Origin: a virus
Lineage: Duplodnaviria > Heunggongvirae > Uroviricota > Caudoviricetes
IMG/VR virus record: IMGVR_UViG_2617270952_000006
DNA: 43,639 nucleotides
Direction: 5' to 3' (one strand)
Shown: in pieces, positions 1,946 to 10,125 of the stretch
How the letters are laid out: every line of letters begins with the position of its first letter
How positions within the stretch are numbered: the first letter of the stretch is position 1
Made by a program: the position numbers and the translations under genes
The notes under the pieces: model-generated
Told to the model about the DNA's origin: nothing
Database searches by the model: none
Seen by the model: the letters and a program-made list of their open reading frames with translations, nothing else

Positions 1946-2878
1946 ATGGACAACGACAAAATTGATCAACACAGCGACGAAATTGAAGTTGAGAGCGAAG
2001 AAAAAGAGCGCGGCAAAAAAATAGAAATAGATGAAGACCGACTCCCCTCCCGGGCGATGGCAATTCATGAGCATATCCGCCAGGATGGTGAAAAAGAGCT
2101 GGAACGCGACGCAATGGCGCTACTGTGGTCAGCCATTGCGGCGGGGCTGTCGATGGGCGCTTCGTTACTGGCAAAAGGGATATTTCAAGTCGAACTGGAA
2201 GGTGTGCCGGGCAGCTTCTTGCTGGAGAATCTCGGTTATACCTTTGGTTTTATTATCGTCATTATGGCCCGCCAGCAATTATTTACCGAAAATACCGTGA
2301 CTGCGGTACTACCCGTCATGCAAAAACCGACAATGAGCAACGTCGGCTTACTTATACGGTTATGGGGCGTCGTGCTGCTGGGTAATATTCTCGGGACAGG
2401 TATTGCGGCGTGGGCATTTGAATATATGCCTATCTTCAATGAAGAAACTCGCGATGCATTTGTCAAAATCGGCATGGATGTGATGAAGAACACCCCCAGC
2501 GAGATGTTTGCCAACGCGATCATTTCCGGCTGGCTGATCGCCACTATGGTTTGGATGTTTCCTGCAGCGGGTGCGGCAAAGATTGTGGTGATTATATTGA
2601 TGACCTGGCTTATTGCCCTGGGTGACACCACCCATATCGTGGTCGGTTCTGTTGAAATCCTCTATCTGGTGTTTAACGGTACGCTGCACTGGAGCGATTT
2701 CATCTGGCCCTTCGCACTACCTACTTTAGCGGGGAACATCTGCGGCGGCACCTTTATCTTCGCGTTAATGAGTCATGCACAGATTCGTAACGACATGAGC
2801 AATAAGCGTAAAGCAGAAGCACGCCAAAAAGCAGAACGTGCGGAAAACATTAAGAAAAATTATAAAAACCCGGCATAA
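1946..2878 (+). CDS. yfdC: Inner-membrane FNT-family protein YfdC
   Basis: 310 aa, polytopic membrane protein with acidic N terminus; recognised as YfdC; K-12 synteny mlaA-yfdC-argW. Confidence 0.9.
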   Translation: MDNDKIDQHSDEIEVESEEKERGKKIEIDEDRLPSRAMAIHEHIRQDGEKELERDAMALLWSAIAAGLSMGASLLAKGIFQVELEGVPGSFLLENLGYTFGFIIVIMARQQLFTENTVTAVLPVMQKPTMSNVGLLIRLWGVVLLGNILGTGIAAWAFEYMPIFNEETRDAFVKIGMDVMKNTPSEMFANAIISGWLIATMVWMFPAAGAAKIVVIILMTWLIALGDTTHIVVGSVEILYLVFNGTLHWSDFIWPFALPTLAGNICGGTFIFALMSHAQIRNDMSNKRKAEARQKAERAENIKKNYKNPA

Positions 2879-2913
2879 ATGGCGAGGGTTTAAGCAATCG
2901 AGCGGCAGCGTAC

Positions 2914-2942
2914 TTACCCCGCACTCCATTAGCGGGTATACT
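2914..2942 (+). promoter_or_regulatory. Candidate argW promoter
   Basis: ttaccc-17 bp-tatact followed by GC-rich discriminator catgccgc a few nt before the tRNA 5' end. Confidence 0.35.
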
Positions 2943-2953
2943 CATGCCGCATT

Positions 2954-3028
2954 GTCCTCTTAGTTAAATGGATATAACGAGCCCCTCCTAAGGGCTAATT
3001 GCAGGTTCGATTCCTGCAGGGGACACCA
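2954..3028 (+). tRNA. argW: tRNA-Arg (anticodon CCU), prophage integration target
   Basis: gtcctct...agggga acceptor pairing, anticodon loop ctCCTaa, T arm gcaggttcgattcctgc, encoded CCA; 75 nt. Confidence 0.95.
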
Positions 3029-3123
3029 TTTATCAGTTCGCTCCCATCCGTACCAGTCCGCAAAATCCCCTGAATATCAAGCCTTCCGTAGATTCACAGT
3101 TCGTAATGGTTCGCGTCAGATCG

Positions 3124-3153
3124 TTGACAGCCGCACTCCATGACGGGTAAAAA
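3124..3153 (+). promoter_or_regulatory. Candidate intS promoter inside attL
   Basis: Perfect TTGACA (3124-3129), 18-bp spacer, TAAAAA (3148-3153), 37 nt before the intS ATG. Confidence 0.4.
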
Positions 3154-3190
3154 GTGGATAAAATAATTTTACCCACCGGATTTTTACCCA
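3145..3190. repeat. Three copies of TTTTACCC (one inverted) over the intS promoter and start
   Basis: gggtaaaaa at 3145-3153 (inverted), ttttaccca at 3167-3175 and 3182-3190. Candidate integrase/RDF binding sites. Confidence 0.4.
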
Positions 3191-4347
3191 TGCTCACCGT
3201 TAAGCAGATTGAAGCAGCAAAGCCGAAAGAAAAACCATACCGCCTACTCGATGGTAATGGCCTGTACCTTTATGTCCCTGTGTCAGGGAAAAAGGTATGG
3301 CAGCTTCGCTACAAGATTGACGGTAAGGAGAAAATCCTGACCGTAGGAAAATATCCGCTAATGACTTTGCAGGAGGCAAGAGATAAAGCATGGACCGCGA
3401 GGAAAGACATCTCGGTTGGCATCGATCCGGTAAAAGCGAAAAAGGCTTCGTCTAACAACAATTCCTTTAGTGCAATTTACAAGGAATGGTACGAACACAA
3501 GAAGCAAGTCTGGTCAGTAGGGTATGCGACTGAACTTGCAAAAATGTTTGATGACGACATTTTACCCATCATCGGCGGTCTTGAGATTCAGGATATTGAG
3601 CCGATGCAACTGCTGGAAGTAATCCGCAGATTTGAAGATCGCGGTGCAATGGAGCGAGCCAACAAAGCCCGCAGAAGATGCGGCGAGGTTTTCCGTTACG
3701 CTATTGTCACTGGTAGGGCTAAATATAACCCGGCACCTGACCTTGCAGACGCCATGAAAGGATACCGCAAGAAGAACTTCCCGTTTCTTCCTGCAGACCA
3801 GATCCCTGCATTCAACAAAGCACTGGCAACATTTTCAGGAAGCATCGTATCGCTCATTGCGACCAAAGTTTTACGCTACACAGCCCTAAGAACGAAAGAG
3901 CTTCGTTCCATGCAATGGAAGAACGTCGATTTTGAAAACAGGATTATCACTATCGACGCCAGTGTGATGAAGGGCCGCAAGATTCATGTTGTTCCTATGT
4001 CAGACCAGGTGGTTGAACTTCTCACTACGCTAAGCTCCATCACTAAACCAGTATCAGAGTTTGTTTTTGCCGGGCGCAACGATAAGAAGAAGCCAATCTG
4101 CGAGAACGCGGTATTGCTTGTTATCAAACAAATCGGCTATGAGGGTCTGGAAAGCGGTCACGGATTCAGGCATGAATTCAGCACAATTATGAACGAGCAC
4201 GAATGGCCTGCTGACGCTATTGAAGTGCAACTGGCACATGCCAACGGCGGATCTGTGCGTGGAATTTACAACCATGCTCAGTATCTCGATAAGCGCAGAG
4301 AAATGATGCAGTGGTGGGCGGACTGGCTTGATGAAAAGGGGGAGTGA
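3190..4347 (+). CDS. intS: Tyrosine integrase, IntS (KplE1/CPS-53, Sf6, HK620 type)
   Basis: 385 aa from MLTVKQIEAAKPKEKPYRLLDGNGLYLYV; C-terminal HGFRHEF...HANGGSVRGIYNHAQY catalytic motifs; adjacent to argW as in K-12. The GTG at 3154 in the ORF track is probably not the start. Confidence 0.93.
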   Translation: MLTVKQIEAAKPKEKPYRLLDGNGLYLYVPVSGKKVWQLRYKIDGKEKILTVGKYPLMTLQEARDKAWTARKDISVGIDPVKAKKASSNNNSFSAIYKEWYEHKKQVWSVGYATELAKMFDDDILPIIGGLEIQDIEPMQLLEVIRRFEDRGAMERANKARRRCGEVFRYAIVTGRAKYNPAPDLADAMKGYRKKNFPFLPADQIPAFNKALATFSGSIVSLIATKVLRYTALRTKELRSMQWKNVDFENRIITIDASVMKGRKIHVVPMSDQVVELLTTLSSITKPVSEFVFAGRNDKKKPICENAVLLVIKQIGYEGLESGHGFRHEFSTIMNEHEWPADAIEVQLAHANGGSVRGIYNHAQYLDKRREMMQWWADWLDEKGE

Positions 4348-4372
4348 CCAACCTTAACCACTATCGGATAGT

Positions 4373-4410
4373 ACAAAGCTTTGCAATCCAGACAAGGCTT
4401 TGTTTTGTCT
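4373..4410. terminator. Hairpin region between convergent intS and tailspike
   Basis: acaaagc...gctttgt 7-bp stem followed by tttgtct; alternative stem agacaa/ttgtct. Confidence 0.35.
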
Positions 4411-4438
4411 AAGTTTGGTCACATTAGATGTGAAATCT

Positions 4439-6442
4439 TCAAATCAGCCCATAAATAACATTATGCAAATGAAGAGAGCCTGCTTCACCGGAAACATCAA
4501 AATCAATCCTAACTTTGCTTGCTCCAGGAGGAACAATATCTATTAATGCGTAGAAATTCCATGTGGAGCCTGATGGAATTGTAAATGTTGCTTTTCCCTG
4601 AACAGAGTTCCCTTCTTTATCAAAAAACTCAATACCAGAGATTGTTGTCACTTGATTCTTAGCCCAAAAACCTAACTGGAAATATCGTCCTGGTGAGCAG
4701 TCTGAGCACTCCTGATAAAATTTTGCAGATGCTCCTATAGATGGTATTGCTACATACAAAGACCTGGAAAACATAATATCATTTGGAACATCAGAATCCG
4801 TTCCTGCTGTAACAACACCTGAACCAGTTTGTTGAAGGCTCCAGTTAGAGTAGTTTAAAAACTGTCCACTTCCATTTGATAGCGAATTTATGTATGGACT
4901 AACTATGTTCCCTTTATCCCACTGAGTTGTTATAAATCCAGATCGTGGATAGCATCCATATGACATTATTTTTTTACTATTACCTCCAACTACCTGTCTA
5001 GTTGCTGATCCTGTCGCCAAATCCATTTGGTCAAATAAAGGCAATGAGCAATTTGTTAATGAAAGTACTGAATCATCATTTACAACAAACGGAACTGAAC
5101 TATATCCAGAGGGAGTAAGTAGCGTTGTATCTTTAATGCTTATTCTTGTGCTTCCAGATGCAGAGAACGCCACAAAGCTTTGACCTGGCTGAAACTCAAT
5201 ATTTCCACTTGAGTAAACAACGGTTGCGTTATCTTCAATAAAAACAGTAGAATCAAAATAACCTTCTTTCTTACCTGCTGGCATAGAGCAACAGTTAAAA
5301 ATAAATTGACCATTTCTAATTGTCAATGGACCTCCATTATCAACAACCCAACAATTATTAAATGTCATTACCTCGCCTGAGTTTGATGGAGAATTAAATA
5401 TAATTGTGTTGTTTAGACATCTTGATATTGTTACTTTGTCAAATAAAATTCTATATGAATTATCAAGAAACTCAATTCCAGCAGATGATATGAATGAAGA
5501 ATTACTTATTCTTAACTCTGATAATTCACCAGTGCCAATACCTCCAAGTAAAATCTTTTTAGATCCTAGCATCTTAAAAGATATGCCATCTAAAATTGAT
5601 GTTGCATTTATTTCATCCCTATTATCATAAGAAATATTAGAGTTACTTAACCTAATTGCATAATCACCTGATATCCCATTAATCTCAGTTAAAACGCATT
5701 TATTCGATCCTCTTAACCCACCTTTCGCGAAATCAATATCAATTAAAGACGAGAATTCTCCACTACATGGAACAACGCAATCATAACCTAGAGAGTTTAT
5801 TTTATTAATAAATAATGCAATATCCCCAGCGCCGCTGTAACCAGCGTCATATACAGAAAACTCAAGGCTTGGGTTTATTCTCTTCCAATTTACACCGTTA
5901 CCTTCTAAAACCATTACGTTATCAACTGCAATTGACTTGTCTACAGCTACAACAAACCCACCACCAAGTTCGAGTCCGGATACGTATGATTTTAAATATA
6001 ATTTATCAGATATCGACATTCCTTGTATATCTTTAAGGGAGTTAGCGCTCTCTACCATTCCAATGTATTTGTATCCAATATTACTTGATAGTTTTATAGA
6101 TAACTGATCAGGATCATACTTCAGCACATTAGGAAAATAGAACTGCTGCGCACCGTACGCATCATAAACAGCCATAGAATGGCCTTGCACGGTTACGAAT
6201 TTGGCAATCTGTCCGTTATATACCGGGTAACCAGCAGCGTTAATGATGATTGGTTGCGATACAGGAACGTGAGAACCGTCTTCGTTCTCTACATAAACCT
6301 GAATCTGGTTTTCAGGATTTACCGGGTCAGTGTCAATTTTTCCGATATAAATTTTGCCATTGGCATTTGCTTTAAACGAGCGAGCTAAAGTAAATAACTG
6401 ACTTGGTTGTGAAACAACAACGTTGTATAATTGTTCTGGCAT
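4439..6442 (-). CDS. Tailspike: conserved P22/Sf6-type head-binding N domain plus divergent receptor-binding C-terminal part
   Basis: [107 protein letters not shown] matches the P22-family N domain. Start taken at ATG 6442 (MPEQLY); an upstream ATG at 6451 is possible. Confidence 0.9.
6403..6431 (+). promoter_or_regulatory. Candidate sigma70 promoter for the HNH-AP2 gene, antisense within the first tailspike codons
   Basis: TTGGTT (6403-6408), 17 bp, perfect TATAAT (6426-6431), about 35 nt upstream of ATG 6465. Confidence 0.35.
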
Positions 6443-6464
6443 AATAAACATTCCGGAGAAAATA

Positions 6465-6965
6465 ATGAGTAAGAGACGTCACGAGGTAGTAACTCGGGAG
6501 CGCCTTATGGAGGTTCTCGATTACAATAAAGAAACAGGAATTTTCACTTGGAAAAAGAAATTAAGCGCCAGAGGTGCTGTTGGGAAAGTTGCTGGCACAA
6601 TTTCTTATGGATATAACGCAATTAATATTGATGGCGTAAGATATTTTGCACATAGACTTGCCTGGCTGTATGTATATGGCGAATGGCCCAAACAAGAGAT
6701 TGACCACATTGATAGAAACAGAAGAAATAACGCAATCTCAAACCTTAGGGATGTCAGCAGAGTCGTAAATGCATTAAATGTCGGACCTCGAAATAGCAAT
6801 GCTGGAATCAAGGGGGTAACTTTCTGTCAAGCCAGAAATCAATGGCAAGCTCAGATAAATGTCTCAGGTAAAAACATAACCCTTGGGAGATTCAACACCA
6901 TTGATGAAGCGGCTATAGCTTATAAGGCAGCAAACATGGTTGCTGACCATCTGTTGAGTAGGTAA
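6465..6965 (+). CDS. Free-standing HNH homing endonuclease with C-terminal AP2 DNA-binding domain
   Basis: HNH motif [18 protein letters not shown]; AP2-like [44 protein letters not shown]; SD ggag 6 nt before the ATG; AT-rich. Confidence 0.85.
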
Positions 6966-7075: not shown

Positions 7076-8011
7076 TCAGTAGTTATGTACTGAAGGAGGT
7101 AATTCTTTATTCTTAAGTCTCATCCATGCGGAAAGATTCGTTGGTCCGTCTGGCTCATTAATATCAACATCTCGTGTGCGATTGATTAAAACGTCTCTCG
7201 CCATTCCGATAACATACGAGAACTCATGACCGTAGTCGTAGCATCTGCCTGAATAGTTCGATTGAATTTGTTTTAGCGCCGGATACAGTTCGCGGAATAA
7301 TGCCTGTGAGCGGTTGGCATAATCCCATAACCATACAAGGCTGTTTACTTCTTTTGCAGAAAGCTCGTTGGTTTTCTTCTCTTGTTTGCCAATGAACTCA
7401 CCTTCAAGTGGAACTCGAGCTGCAAGTGATAGTGCTTCGGTAAACTGCTCCTCACTGATTTCTTTGTATGAACATCCAAAATGGGATTTCAGTGACGACC
7501 ACATGGTGATCATCGCCTTAGCCTGTTTTTCCTTTGGCAGAGACTGACCGCGACTCATGACGAGTTGTTTAATGGCTTCCTGCTGTTCAGTGGTGATTTT
7601 ACCCGGCAACGCCTTTTTAGCTTTGCGCGGGTTAACTACATGGCCTTTAGTCCAGTAGTCATGCAGCACGCTAAAGCATTCCTCCTGGTACTGAATCAGT
7701 TTATCGCGGATGTCAGCACGAACTTTCTCAGGGTTGATGCTGAACAGCCATCCATTTAACTTCTTCAAAGGAAGGCAGAGTAGCTTACGAAGCTTTCCAT
7801 CAGCAGCAACCATATTCATATGAATACATTTGAACTTATCTAGTTGTTTCATAAGTTTTTGTTGCTGAGTACCCCAGCTCATTCCGAGGTTTTCAACGAT
7901 TGGCTTCATCGCAACATATGCAACTCCGGCAGCCATGGCGGTGATAATTTGCTGACCGTTGAATGGTACGTAAGAGGTGTTCACTGCTTCTAAAATTGCT
8001 ATACTATTCAT
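7076..8011 (-). CDS. ant: Antirepressor Ant (P22 immI)
   Basis: [26 protein letters not shown]... recognised as the P22 Ant N terminus; SD ggag upstream of ATG 8011. The longer ORF to 8077 is probably not used. Confidence 0.9.
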
Positions 8012-8073
8012 GTTGGTTTTTCTCCACGGATTTACTGACAACCGAAGCCCTGACTGTTCCCGCAGTTGGGGCT

Positions 8074-8256
8074 TCACTGTTTTATGTTCACATCTAACAT
8101 TGTTTTTCTAGAATTTAACTCTTTCCCCATCGCTTCAACGCAAAGAGATACACAACTACTACAGATAAATATCTCTGCTTTAGCGCGAATCAACATTGCA
8201 CATTCATGCTGAGGCTTTCCGCAGAAGGAGCACTTAAAGCCATCTTCTTTATTCAT
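8074..8256 (-). CDS. Small ClpX-type C4 zinc-finger (ZBD-like) protein between arc and ant
   Basis: 60 aa; [31 protein letters not shown] is collinear with the ClpX N-terminal zinc-binding domain, with 4 Zn cysteines. Its ATG overlaps the arc stop (ATGA). Confidence 0.75.
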
Positions 8257-8405
8257 ATCGCCACCCCCTCTTTCTTCAGGCTGTCTATCAGGCGCTTGAT
8301 AACCTCTGAGTTAAACGACCTGCACTCTTCCTTTGCCCTGCTACCGATAGCATCCTTTAACGACTGCGGCATCCTTACCAAAATCTTACTTATTTCTTTC
8401 TCCAT
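8253..8405 (-). CDS. arc: Arc-like ribbon-helix-helix repressor
   Basis: [50 protein letters not shown] versus P22 Arc ...NGRSVNSEIYQRVMESFKKEG; strong SD ggaggg. Confidence 0.85.
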   Translation of the reverse strand: MEKEISKILVRMPQSLKDAIGSRAKEECRSFNSEVIKRLIDSLKKEGVAI

Positions 8406-8441
8406 GTTACCCTCCACACAAACAACTCTTTTCGAATACAA

Positions 8442-8470
8442 AAGATAGCAAAGTGAGTATATCTAGTCAA
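8442..8470 (-). promoter_or_regulatory. Candidate Pant promoter with operator in the spacer
   Basis: Minus strand TTGACT (8470-8465), 17 bp, TATCTT (8447-8442). The spacer holds TAG...CTA pseudo-symmetric sequence where P22 places the Arc operator. Confidence 0.5.
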
Positions 8471-8487
8471 AATTTTTTTGCATACAC

Positions 8488-8499
8488 TTTGATATCAAA
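8488..8499. promoter_or_regulatory. Perfect 12-bp palindrome tttgatatcaaa upstream of mnt (candidate operator)
   Basis: Self-complementary 12-mer 21 bp before the mnt ATG in the divergent arc/mnt control region. Confidence 0.4.
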
Positions 8500-8519
8500 T
8501 TGAATACCAAAGGTGTGTT

Positions 8520-8768
8520 ATGGCAAAGGGTGTGTCAATTTCTCCAACTACGGTAAGAATCCCTGAATCTTTACGCGAGGCTCTTGCTGTTAGAGCATCA
8601 AAAAATGGTCGCTCTGTTAACTCCGAGATCGTCATGATTTTGCAAGCCGCGATTGATGAAGATAGGTCGCCAAAGTCAGTTGAGTCATTTGCTCAGCAAG
8701 AAGCTGACAAATTCAAAGAGGCGCTGCTGGAGACGCTGAAAACCATGTATGGTAAGGATGATAAATAA
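8520..8768 (+). CDS. mnt: Mnt-like ribbon-helix-helix repressor
   Basis: 82 aa; RIPESLREALAVRASKNGRSVNSEIVMILQAAI resembles the P22 Mnt RHH; C-terminal helical tail; divergent from arc. Confidence 0.85.
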   Translation: MAKGVSISPTTVRIPESLREALAVRASKNGRSVNSEIVMILQAAIDEDRSPKSVESFAQQEADKFKEALLETLKTMYGKDDK

Positions 8769-9304
8769 TGCTGCACACAATTCATTTCTTATGCCCCGTT
8801 AACACCGCCACTGTTGGGCAACTTCAGAACCACTGTCTCACCGCATTATCTCAAGGCGCAACTGAATTAAATATCCATATATCAAGTCAGGGAGGGGAAA
8901 CTGCCGCTGGTTTTACTGCGTATAACTTTCTTAAGTCACTCCCTGTTACCGTTAGAACTCACAACATAAGCAATGTTGAATCCATAGCTAATATCGTTTT
9001 CCTGGCTGGCTCAGAACGTTTCGCAAACCCATTATCAAGATTCCTGTTACATCCTCTATTATGGGGCTTTGCCTCCCCAGCCGCCGACCATGCCAGACTG
9101 AGAGAGTACGGGAAATGCCTCGATAACGATCTTGATCGCTTCGTTGAGACGTTCAATATCGACATCGGAACCCATATTAGGTGGGCATCCCTGATAGCAG
9201 ACTCGACCATTTTGGATGCTAACAAGGCTCTTGAGCATGGCATAATTAATTCCATAAAAACTGCAAGGCTGGCATCCAATCAGGCAAACTGGTGGGTTGT
9301 TTGA
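8768..9304 (+). CDS. ClpP-family (S14-like) serine protease paralogue lacking the ClpP N-terminal region
   Basis: 178 aa collinear with ClpP: ISSQGGETAAG, NVESIAN (Ser), RFANPLSRFLLHPL (His), ADSTILDANKALEHGIINSI (Asp). Start overlaps the mnt stop (TAATG). Confidence 0.7.
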   Translation: MLHTIHFLCPVNTATVGQLQNHCLTALSQGATELNIHISSQGGETAAGFTAYNFLKSLPVTVRTHNISNVESIANIVFLAGSERFANPLSRFLLHPLLWGFASPAADHARLREYGKCLDNDLDRFVETFNIDIGTHIRWASLIADSTILDANKALEHGIINSIKTARLASNQANWWVV

Positions 9305-9330: not shown

Positions 9331-9356
9331 AAAAACCCACCTGACGGTGGGGTTCA
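9331..9356. terminator. Bidirectional terminator between the ClpP-like gene and the lipoprotein gene
   Basis: aaaaa-cccacc-tgac-ggtggg-gttcattt. Confidence 0.6.
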
Positions 9357-9360
9357 TTTC

Positions 9361-9780
9361 TTAATCTTGCTTCGTGGAAGGTATAAGAGATGCATTTGCC
9401 TCTTTTGGCTTCAATGTATACATCCCACCATTAAATGGATCAACAGCAAGCCAACCAATTAACCCACCAAACACAAGGTTTCCACCAATATACCAACCAT
9501 TAGCATTGGCTTTGATTGGCAGGGTAACTGGTTCGTACCCATCCTTCTCCATAGTGATCTGGTAGCTCTTTTTGCCAAAATAGCTACCATCTGACTTGGC
9601 GAGTGTTACACCTTGTGGAGTCTTACCTTGCGCAACAATCACACCCGATTCATCTTTTACCTTAAAGCTCGCGCCAGAAGGATTGCTGTTCACTTGCACA
9701 AGTTGCGTTTCATCACCAACAATAGTTGCGCACCCAGATAACATGATAACGCCAGCAACGACGCTAATAATCCTCTTCAT
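9361..9780 (-). CDS. Lipoprotein with PEGA-like domain (moron at the P22 sieA position)
   Basis: MKRIISVVAGVIMLSGC lipobox signal; NPSGASFKV PEGA-like motif; glycine-rich hydrophobic C-terminal segment. Confidence 0.7.
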   Translation of the reverse strand: MKRIISVVAGVIMLSGCATIVGDETQLVQVNSNPSGASFKVKDESGVIVAQGKTPQGVTLAKSDGSYFGKKSYQITMEKDGYEPVTLPIKANANGWYIGGNLVFGGLIGWLAVDPFNGGMYTLKPKEANASLIPSTKQD

Positions 9781-9897
9781 ATCAATTTCCATATTTAAAA
9801 AACCGGAAACATCCTAATGACAAAACATTCAAATGTGAAGTAGGCAAAAGATGTTTACTTTTTTCATGGTATCCTGCTCAAAACTAAGGAGGTTGGT

Positions 9898-10125
9898 GTG
9901 AAGCGATGGTTCCTCATAATTACTGTTTTCGCGATCATTTACACTATTTTCCCTGCATTAAAAGCACCAATGCAAATAATTTCACTAGCAATAATTTCGA
10001 TTGGTGCTTTCATTGCAGTAGCCGTACTTGTGTTTAAGGTTTTAAAGTTTTTAGTTTGGCTATCAAAAGATGATGGATGCAAAGTTCATCAAGAAAAAGA
10101 AGGCAAAATAACCAAAGTTGACTAA
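9898..10125 (+). CDS. Small two-TM membrane protein (GTG start)
   Basis: Strong SD aaggagg 5 nt before the GTG; two hydrophobic helices then a charged tail. Confidence 0.6.
   Translation: MKRWFLIITVFAIIYTIFPALKAPMQIISLAIISIGAFIAVAVLVFKVLKFLVWLSKDDGCKVHQEKEGKITKVD

Follow-up and report, generated by a model that had tools for sequence, protein, structure and literature searches.

Escherichia coli is the reference organism for the protease ClpXP and is treated as having a single ClpP. In Pseudomonas, atypical ClpP proteins have been described: in Pseudomonas plecoglossicida, PpClpP1 (PDB 9UXT), a ClpP shortened at its N terminus and with Ser, His and Pro at the catalytic positions, forms a homo-14-mer with a 42.7 Å pore by cryo-EM, has low peptidase activity, gives no ClpX pull-down, and combines with canonical ClpP into a hetero-14-mer with higher peptidase and ClpX-dependent activity (PMC12900304), while ClpP2 of Pseudomonas aeruginosa hetero-oligomerises and modulates ClpXP assembly (PMC13056064). 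On the side of the ATPase, residues F16 and I46 of ClpX define a hydrophobic patch that binds lambda O, SspB, RssB and trigger factor (PMC7804408). We analysed a P22-like temperate phage, the 43,639-nucleotide IMG/VR virus record IMGVR_UViG_2617270952_000006 (the whole stretch is called the window below), in which positions 8074–9304 of the immI module carry homologues of both halves of ClpXP: a 60-amino-acid (60-aa) ClpX-type zinc-finger protein, ZBD60, encoded between arc and sar/ant, and a 178-aa short ClpP encoded behind mnt. Both proteins are new, uncharacterised members of known families. The immI module carries them as two independent accessory cassettes, in separately exchangeable slots, and the two genes are not a working pair.

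An earlier note on this DNA, made from its letters alone, had proposed the opposite, that is, an oppositely regulated pair that jointly retargets or blocks host ClpXP, and had set a lack of linkage between the two genes beforehand as grounds for giving the idea up. That lack of linkage is what we found, in E. coli genomes, in IMG/VR and among sequenced phages. Among 5,426 complete E. coli genomes, 128 carry the short ClpP gene, which almost always adjoins mnt, and 10 carry the ZBD60 gene; only APEC20/16 has both (1 of 10 and 1 of 128, respectively), and only this genome covers the whole of 8074–9304. The picture was the same in IMG/VR, with 80 short ClpP loci, six ZBD60 loci and a single contig in common, short ClpP being absent from the other five of the six ZBD60 contigs. 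The common contig matches all five immI proteins of the window at 99–100% identity and probably belongs to a close relative of the window phage. Short ClpP was likewise absent from six of seven ZBD60 prophages that we inspected, and the ZBD60 gene from six sequenced phages with short ClpP (phiv205-1, EC.P3, E212 and PhiR12_1/4/5). Short ClpP also occurs in phage types that have neither immI nor the zinc-finger gene. It is true that homologues of the two ClpXP halves lie here in two divergent immI operons, and that this architecture recurs in APEC20/16 and on the common IMG/VR contig; against the counts above, we nevertheless regard a working pair as very improbable. The two proteins could still meet at ClpXP by coincidence, neither needing the other.

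The slots are best seen on the module itself, which is complete (ant-sar-arc / mnt) and placed between the tailspike and ejection genes:

7076..8014, minus strand: ant, antirepressor gene, probable ATG at 8014 (Pfam P22_AR_N 1.4e-44, P22_AR_C 5.8e-29; phrog_245 Ant 3e-97)
8012..8078, plus strand: sar antisense RNA (Rfam RF00262, full length, 87.7 bits against a gathering score of 43)
8044–8075: terminator-like hairpin of sar
8074..8256, minus strand: ZBD60, stand-alone ClpX-type C4 zinc-finger protein of 60 aa, a cassette exactly between the arc stop and the sar terminator
8253..8405, minus strand: arc, 50 aa from the ATG at 8405 (Pfam Arc 2.5e-12), the RefSeq start in identical prophages
8442..8519: divergent Pant/Pmnt control region, with a promoter-like site on the minus strand at 8470–8442; its position matches the annotated Pmnt/Pant and arcO of epsilon34
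8520..8768, plus strand: mnt, ribbon-helix-helix repressor of 82 aa (Pfam Arc 9.6e-11, FitA-like_RHH 2e-8)
8768..9304, plus strand: short ClpP, 178 aa, PpClpP1-like, N-terminally truncated, Ser72/His95 dyad (Pfam CLP_protease, 46.5 bits)
9336..9351, both strands: bidirectional terminator hairpin that ends the mnt/short ClpP unit and the convergent lipoprotein gene
9361..9792, minus strand: convergent lipoprotein-like accessory gene at the slot boundary (phrog_6823 2e-86, weak PEGA match)

The mechanical open reading frame (ORF) of arc reaches a TTG at 8441; we preferred the ATG at 8405, following the RefSeq start. The P22-type layout that the earlier note used for comparison, with neither cargo gene, is that of epsilon34, where arc abuts sar and ant, and where a terminator directly follows mnt and is itself followed by a homologue of the lipoprotein-like gene.

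The first slot is the arc-sar interval. As had been read from the letters, the ZBD60 gene lies there with its ATG (8256–8254) overlapping the arc stop (8255–8253) as ATGA, and a GAGGGGG Shine-Dalgarno sequence stands upstream; because the gene fits exactly between the arc stop and the sar terminator, its own stop codon falls in the terminator tail. Across E. coli relatives this interval is occupied by ZBD60, by any of three further C4 zinc-finger ORFs whose motif is CxFCG...(I/L)CxxC(V/I) (ZF67, ZF63 and ZF74), or by a Cys-free ORF of 57, 73 or 89 aa, or it is empty, which makes at least seven alternatives, counting the empty state. Wherever we checked (ZBD60, ZF67 and a further slot ORF, HYP57), the start of the slot ORF overlaps the arc stop. 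As a rule the slot of E. coli P22-like prophages is filled by such a small ORF, as at 3809–4012 of the locus in NZ_CP024886.1 and in many IMG/VR loci; ZF67 is unannotated in RefSeq.

The second slot is the 3' end of mnt. The stop of mnt and the start of short ClpP overlap as TAATG, the coupling that the earlier note had pointed out, with an AAGGA Shine-Dalgarno sequence upstream. Every Mnt that precedes a short ClpP ends ...ETLK(T/K)(M/I)Y(G/A)KD(E/D/N)K; the C-terminal tail of the window's own protein, '...ETLKTMYGKDDK' (8730–8768), is thus common to every such Mnt type, while the DNA-binding (ribbon-helix-helix) half of these proteins comes in at least six types. A tail that stays constant across so many DNA-binding types places the cassette junction in the last codons of mnt and makes the translational coupling part of the cassette. 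In the six ZBD60 prophages that lack short ClpP, the genes downstream of mnt are instead those of P63C, Panacea-domain or YafO toxin proteins or further Arc-family genes, and the region after mnt is therefore a variable cargo hot spot. What the survey adds is thus two cargo insertion points of immI, the arc-sar slot and the 3' end of mnt, whose occupants are to be studied separately.

Exchange at the two points could also be scored within single loci. We sampled 49 IMG/VR loci through arc, which are not phylogenetically independent; a catalogued ORF filled the arc-sar slot in 46 of the 49, and 47 could be scored for both slots, two ZF67 loci being left unscored. By occupant of the arc-sar slot, the counts were:

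ZBD60: 1 with short ClpP, 4 without
ZF67: 10 with short ClpP, 9 without
ZF63: 1 with short ClpP, 1 without
Cys-free 57-aa ORF: 12 with short ClpP, 5 without
other ORF or empty: 0 with short ClpP, 4 without

Taken together, loci with any zinc finger had short ClpP in 12 cases and lacked it in 14, and loci with no zinc finger had it in 12 and lacked it in 9, so that no positive association appears among these arc-sampled loci.

Turning to the proteins themselves, the view that short ClpP is a ClpP beginning after the first ~40 residues held up. It passes Pfam CLP_protease (E 5e-12, 46.5 bits against a cut-off of 20.2, profile positions 37–180 of 182), and its AlphaFold2 (AF2) model (predicted local distance difference test, pLDDT, 94.1; predicted TM-score, pTM, 0.89) is a ClpP fold with the long handle helix at 107–131, with TM-scores by Foldseek of 0.94 to 9UXT, ~0.78 to E. 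coli ClpP and 0.76–0.85 to ClpP structures. The protein begins at ClpP strand beta1, without ~26 residues of mature ClpP or ~40 of the precursor, and the axial loops and helix A are consequently missing. It does not reach the NCBIfam equivalog models for ClpP (22–41 bits against cut-offs of 228–361). Of the candidate catalytic residues that the earlier note had picked out, the Ser ('NVESIAN') and the His ('LLHPL') stand, since neither varies among 26 members of the family; the 'ADSTIL' Asp had to be dropped, since it is not conserved in the family and is not aligned with D171 when the protein is aligned to E. coli ClpP by hhalign. The column that does align with the catalytic D171 has Ser in the window protein, Ser, Ala or Thr in relatives, and Pro in PpClpP1. 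The same alignment places N, H, S, H, I, F and N at E. coli ClpP Y60, Y62, F82, I90, M92, F112 and L114, seven residues that we take to be the IGF/LGF docking pocket for ClpX and ClpA. With no axial loops and a mostly polar pocket, the sequence is consistent with a protein that would lack the features for docking ClpX or ClpA.

The gene is under evident constraint. Against relatives of 69–80% identity, its ratio of nonsynonymous to synonymous substitution rates (dN/dS) is 0.07–0.15, which marks it as a constrained protein-coding gene, and it is intact in 126 of the 128 E. coli genomes that carry it. Prophages with short ClpP are found in ~2% of E. coli strains, many of them extraintestinal pathogenic (ExPEC) or avian pathogenic (APEC) isolates.

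The nearest solved relative of short ClpP is PpClpP1 (E 3.6e-35, 40% identity, TM-score 0.94, root-mean-square deviation 1.5 Å), so that, where the earlier note knew of no described function for such a pair, there is in fact a characterised relative to compare with (PMC12900304). The two proteins share the N-terminal truncation at beta1, the handle helix, the retained Ser and His, and a residue other than Asp at the canonical Asp position. They differ at that third triad position (Ser in the window protein, Pro in PpClpP1) and in genomic setting: PpClpP1 is a chromosomal core gene with housekeeping neighbours, whereas in the window the gene is coupled to mnt and is mobile cargo of a prophage. 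Judged from their translations, the PpClpP1 neighbours resemble a phospholipase D/cardiolipin synthase, an EEP-family nuclease, an iron permease and a KGG stress protein, and the gene is kept at 80–99% identity in genomes of 80 or more P. putida-group species; we considered whether PpClpP1 might itself be prophage-borne, and this conservation together with the chromosomal neighbours rules it out. The short ClpP family thus has a vertically inherited and a prophage-borne branch. Phages go unmentioned in the PpClpP1 paper.

The likeness to P. aeruginosa ClpP2 (PMC13056064, PMC12451819) is one of concept, namely an atypical ClpP that does not engage ClpX by itself and that alters ClpXP when it hetero-oligomerises with canonical ClpP; ClpP2 is a chromosomal paralogue and was not among the best 60 of the 103 PDB matches of short ClpP. 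Our literature searches turned up no paper on ClpP paralogues encoded by phages or prophages, nor on immI accessory genes of this kind.

Among phage families, the best PHROG match of short ClpP is to the ClpP-type head maturation proteases (phrog_94, 1.8e-21), which are likewise short phage-encoded ClpP-fold proteins. A head protease is nonetheless ruled out: the score against NCBIfam NF045542 is below threshold (49.6 against 120), the gene lies in immI and outside the head module, and the head is of the P22 type with a scaffold. The earlier remark that such a capsid needs no maturation protease agrees with the head module itself, where no protease was present among the ORFs scanned and the coat, scaffold and portal genes were.

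The match to head proteases also counts towards a rival reading. Short ClpP might be a lysogen-expressed exclusion or abortive-infection protease, independent of host ClpP, whose targets would be the scaffold, prohead or ejection proteins of superinfecting phages, or which would poison their ClpP-type prohead proteases. Its slot is used for exclusion- or defence-type cargo in relatives (the YafO toxin, Panacea-domain and P63C proteins), its positions in many prophages are typical of accessory genes, and a pore as wide as that of PpClpP1 could admit unfolded substrates without an ATPase. The intrinsic activity of PpClpP1 is low, though, no PADLOC model is matched, and no sensor or effector partner gene is conserved beside short ClpP in the contexts that we inspected. 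We consider such a protease unlikely, if worth keeping in mind.

The settings of short ClpP outside the window bear on how far it depends on the antirepressor switch. In Escherichia phage PhiR12_1 (PV340549.1, 2022–4034) an ant-arc/mnt-ClpP-like module, with its arc-sar slot empty, sits between the lambda-type tail genes L and K; a complete immI module in the tail cluster of a lambda-like siphophage means that immI with short ClpP moves as a unit between phage types. In a Stutzerimonas prophage (2063–5558) a 45%-identical short ClpP follows a helix-turn-helix (HTH) repressor gene, and the divergent arm comprises an Arc-like 55-aa gene, a P22_AR_N antirepressor, a 69-aa ORF and a second antirepressor; this locus is an analogous switch built of non-homologous parts. 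Elsewhere the gene stands alone. In Klebsiella and Leclercia prophages a lone short ClpP gene lies on the opposite strand between the lysis and terminase genes (in Klebsiella, the prophage has an S78 head protease of its own besides). Further family members were seen between the tail operons of P2-like prophages, at P2-like and Mu-like tail ends, and where a prophage meets host DNA.

Short ClpP might, alternatively, serve the switch, for instance by removing leaky Ant or by processing Mnt or Arc in the lysogen: its coupling to mnt persists in six or more Mnt specificity types, it has moved with the entire module into the lambda-like tail cluster, and in Stutzerimonas it is found downstream of a non-homologous HTH repressor divergent from arc-ant. 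Yet many family members occur in prophages with no antirepressor module nearby, and immI works without short ClpP in P22, in epsilon34 and in 23 of the 47 scorable arc-sampled loci, which leaves a role in the switch, in our judgement, quite improbable. Short ClpP is found widely as an accessory gene of prophages and evolves under purifying selection, and, from its repeated lone accessory positions, it looks like a gene that is expressed in the lysogen and can function without immI and without a zinc-finger partner.

For ZBD60, the assignment to the ClpX zinc domain with its four cysteines, first made by eye, was upheld by profile search. The protein passes Pfam zf-C4_ClpX (PF06689; E 4e-11, 43 bits against a cut-off of 27) and matches solved E. 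coli ClpX zinc domains (PDB 1ovx, E 9e-8); BLASTP against E. coli ClpX residues 14–51 gives 19 identities in 39 positions (49%). C9, C12, C32 and C35 align with ClpX C14, C17, C36 and C39, so that all four zinc cysteines are kept, and F16 of ClpX is retained as F11. Compared with the E. coli domain (1OVX, 2DS5-8), what is shared is the four Cys ligands, the CSFCGK...ICxxCV motif, F16 and the overall identity, and what differs is the lack of an AAA+ module, the 'LIRAKAE' turn, the Ala in place of I46 and the setting in a phage antirepressor operon. At 60 aa in total ZBD60 is no ClpX (29–33 bits for the NCBIfam ClpX equivalogs, against cut-offs of 359–371). Identical copies already bear the name 'ClpX C4-type zinc finger protein' in RefSeq (WP_047668240.1). 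Our literature searches turned up no paper on ClpX C4-type zinc-finger proteins in phages or on the function of a free, phage-borne ClpX zinc domain.

Most ZBD60 copies are intact, with a good Shine-Dalgarno sequence and start/stop coupling. Three copies of the zinc-finger gene look damaged, among them those of NZ_CP068680.1 and NZ_CP169309.1: in one, Tyr replaces the first zinc Cys, and the other two are missing their N-terminal part together with the first CxxC. Damage of this kind, a Cys-to-Tyr change at a zinc ligand or a lost N-terminus, is what could be cited for the idea that one or both ORFs are decaying, functionless remnants; set against the intact majority of ZBD60 copies, and against a short ClpP gene with the intactness, the low dN/dS and the invariant Ser and His given above, we find that idea hardly credible.

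Genes of a similar kind occur in other phages. In P2-like coliphages (PhiR44_2, PV340564.1, 2324–2656; also P88), the accessory region that follows the replication gene encodes a 110-aa ClpX-type zinc-finger protein that is ~40% identical to ZBD60; free ClpX-type zinc fingers are thus not limited to immI.

As the joint explanation we somewhat favour two independent immI cassettes, with short ClpP acting as a partner of ClpP or as a peptidase and ZBD60 as a competitor of the ClpX N-domain. The operon logic that the earlier note had proposed is retained here, in that it follows from the coupling and from the position in the Pant operon: short ClpP, translationally coupled to mnt, should be expressed with the maintenance repressor, and ZBD60, encoded after arc and before sar/ant in the Pant operon, should accompany the antirepressor. 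Read from operon structure in this way, the Pant transcript would yield ZBD60 alongside Arc and Ant, early after infection or when repression is lifted, and the ZBD60 gene would be silent in the lysogen; the Mnt transcript would yield short ClpP there. If PpClpP1 and P. aeruginosa ClpP2 are a guide, short ClpP would assemble into an open-pored 14-mer chamber whose active sites are formed by Ser and His. Without N-terminal loops and with a mostly polar IGF pocket, it would presumably be unable to dock ClpX or ClpA by itself. It may act as a weak ATP-independent peptidase alone, but more probably it would supply a partner ring for host ClpP in a mixed complex; such hetero-assembly would then retune ClpXP and ClpAP proteolysis in the lysogen. 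For ZBD60 the proposal is more speculative: it might compete for N-domain-dependent substrates and adaptors or heterodimerise with the ClpX N-domain, and so might briefly shield phage or host proteins from ClpXP early in infection, or block the delivery of substrates by adaptors. Small phage proteins that are produced early and inhibit a host protease do exist, T4 PinA and T7 Gp4.5 being inhibitors of Lon; the comparison is a functional analogy for the decoy idea alone, there being no homology, and inhibition by ZBD60 is hypothetical.

Several observations weigh against this joint explanation. On the side of short ClpP, PpClpP1 is just 40% identical and a chromosomal core gene, and its behaviour may not transfer. 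PADLOC returned no family at E <= 0.1 for either protein, and membership of a catalogued defence system is unsupported for both. As to ZBD60, Ala42 stands at the I46 position of the hydrophobic patch, and the 'LIAGP' turn of ClpX has become 'LIRAKAE', with a one-residue insertion. Its single-sequence AF2 model is weak (pLDDT 63), though even so its best fold matches are ClpX zinc domains, at E 0.003–0.05. The ClpX-type zinc finger is also common: in an exhaustive search, 1,928 representative clusters have it at E <= 1e-3, most of them not ClpX-sized and mostly short stand-alone or tandem-repeat proteins, and a domain so widespread outside ClpX implies by itself no ClpX-directed function. The other zinc-finger occupants of the arc-sar slot are marginally ClpX-like (Pfam E 0.006 for ZF67, 0.2 for ZF63 and none for ZF74; hhalign probability 89%).

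The same facts feed a separate reading of ZBD60, as a generic dimeric zinc ribbon unrelated to ClpX in function, which might regulate Arc, Ant or sar or serve the takeover of the host in some other way. Abundant stand-alone and tandem relatives, a slot that also takes three barely ClpX-like C4 ORFs and Cys-free ORFs, and the loss of 'LIAGP' and I46 all fit it, as does the record of the five PHROG families of such phage zinc-finger proteins, four without assigned function and one labelled just 'protease'. A word-indexed homologue search with ZBD60 returned its own cluster alone, and the exhaustive search was dominated by tandem zinc-finger proteins. The 49% identity to the zinc domain of host ClpX, with F16 of the adaptor- and substrate-binding patch included, argues against a generic ribbon, although this figure is about the same as the identity to individual domains of other library proteins (29–54%). 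We regard the generic ribbon as possible but doubtful, and continue to prefer a competitor of the ClpX N-domain.

If short ClpP does co-assemble with host ClpP as PpClpP1 does, lysogeny would change regulated proteolysis, a form of lysogenic conversion; virulence regulators, responses to stress and the lifetimes of proteins from other phages could then be affected. A free ClpX N-domain acting as proposed would be, within the literature searched, the first phage factor aimed at the selection of substrates and adaptors by ClpX. Both together, a prophage that rewires host ClpXP and ClpAP in the lysogen through a second ClpP ring and an arc-sar slot that delivers ClpX N-domain decoys, is a tentative picture that we would not call likely. 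The interest of the locus comes from the prospective second ClpP ring in E. coli and from the recurrent zinc-finger cargo of the arc-sar slot, and not from the pair.

The remainder of the window is that of a P22-like temperate phage, with tailspike, integrase, C2-type repressor, P22-type coat, scaffold, portal, terminase and ejection proteins. Further genes of note flank the immI genes. Between the tailspike gene and ant, a 180-aa ORF (6423–6965, plus strand) shows by eye an HNH motif and an AP2-like DNA-binding region and matches a PADLOC homing-endonuclease model (2e-7). E. coli AR_0118 has an annotated HNH endonuclease at this position, the remaining relatives that we inspected carry no annotation there, and in epsilon34 the position is empty; the ORF is probably a homing endonuclease insertion. 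On the other side, beyond the lipoprotein-like gene (9361–9792, minus strand), a 75-aa membrane protein (9898–10125, plus strand) belongs to phrog_7294, and the region 9361–10125 is presumably the position of P22 sieA.

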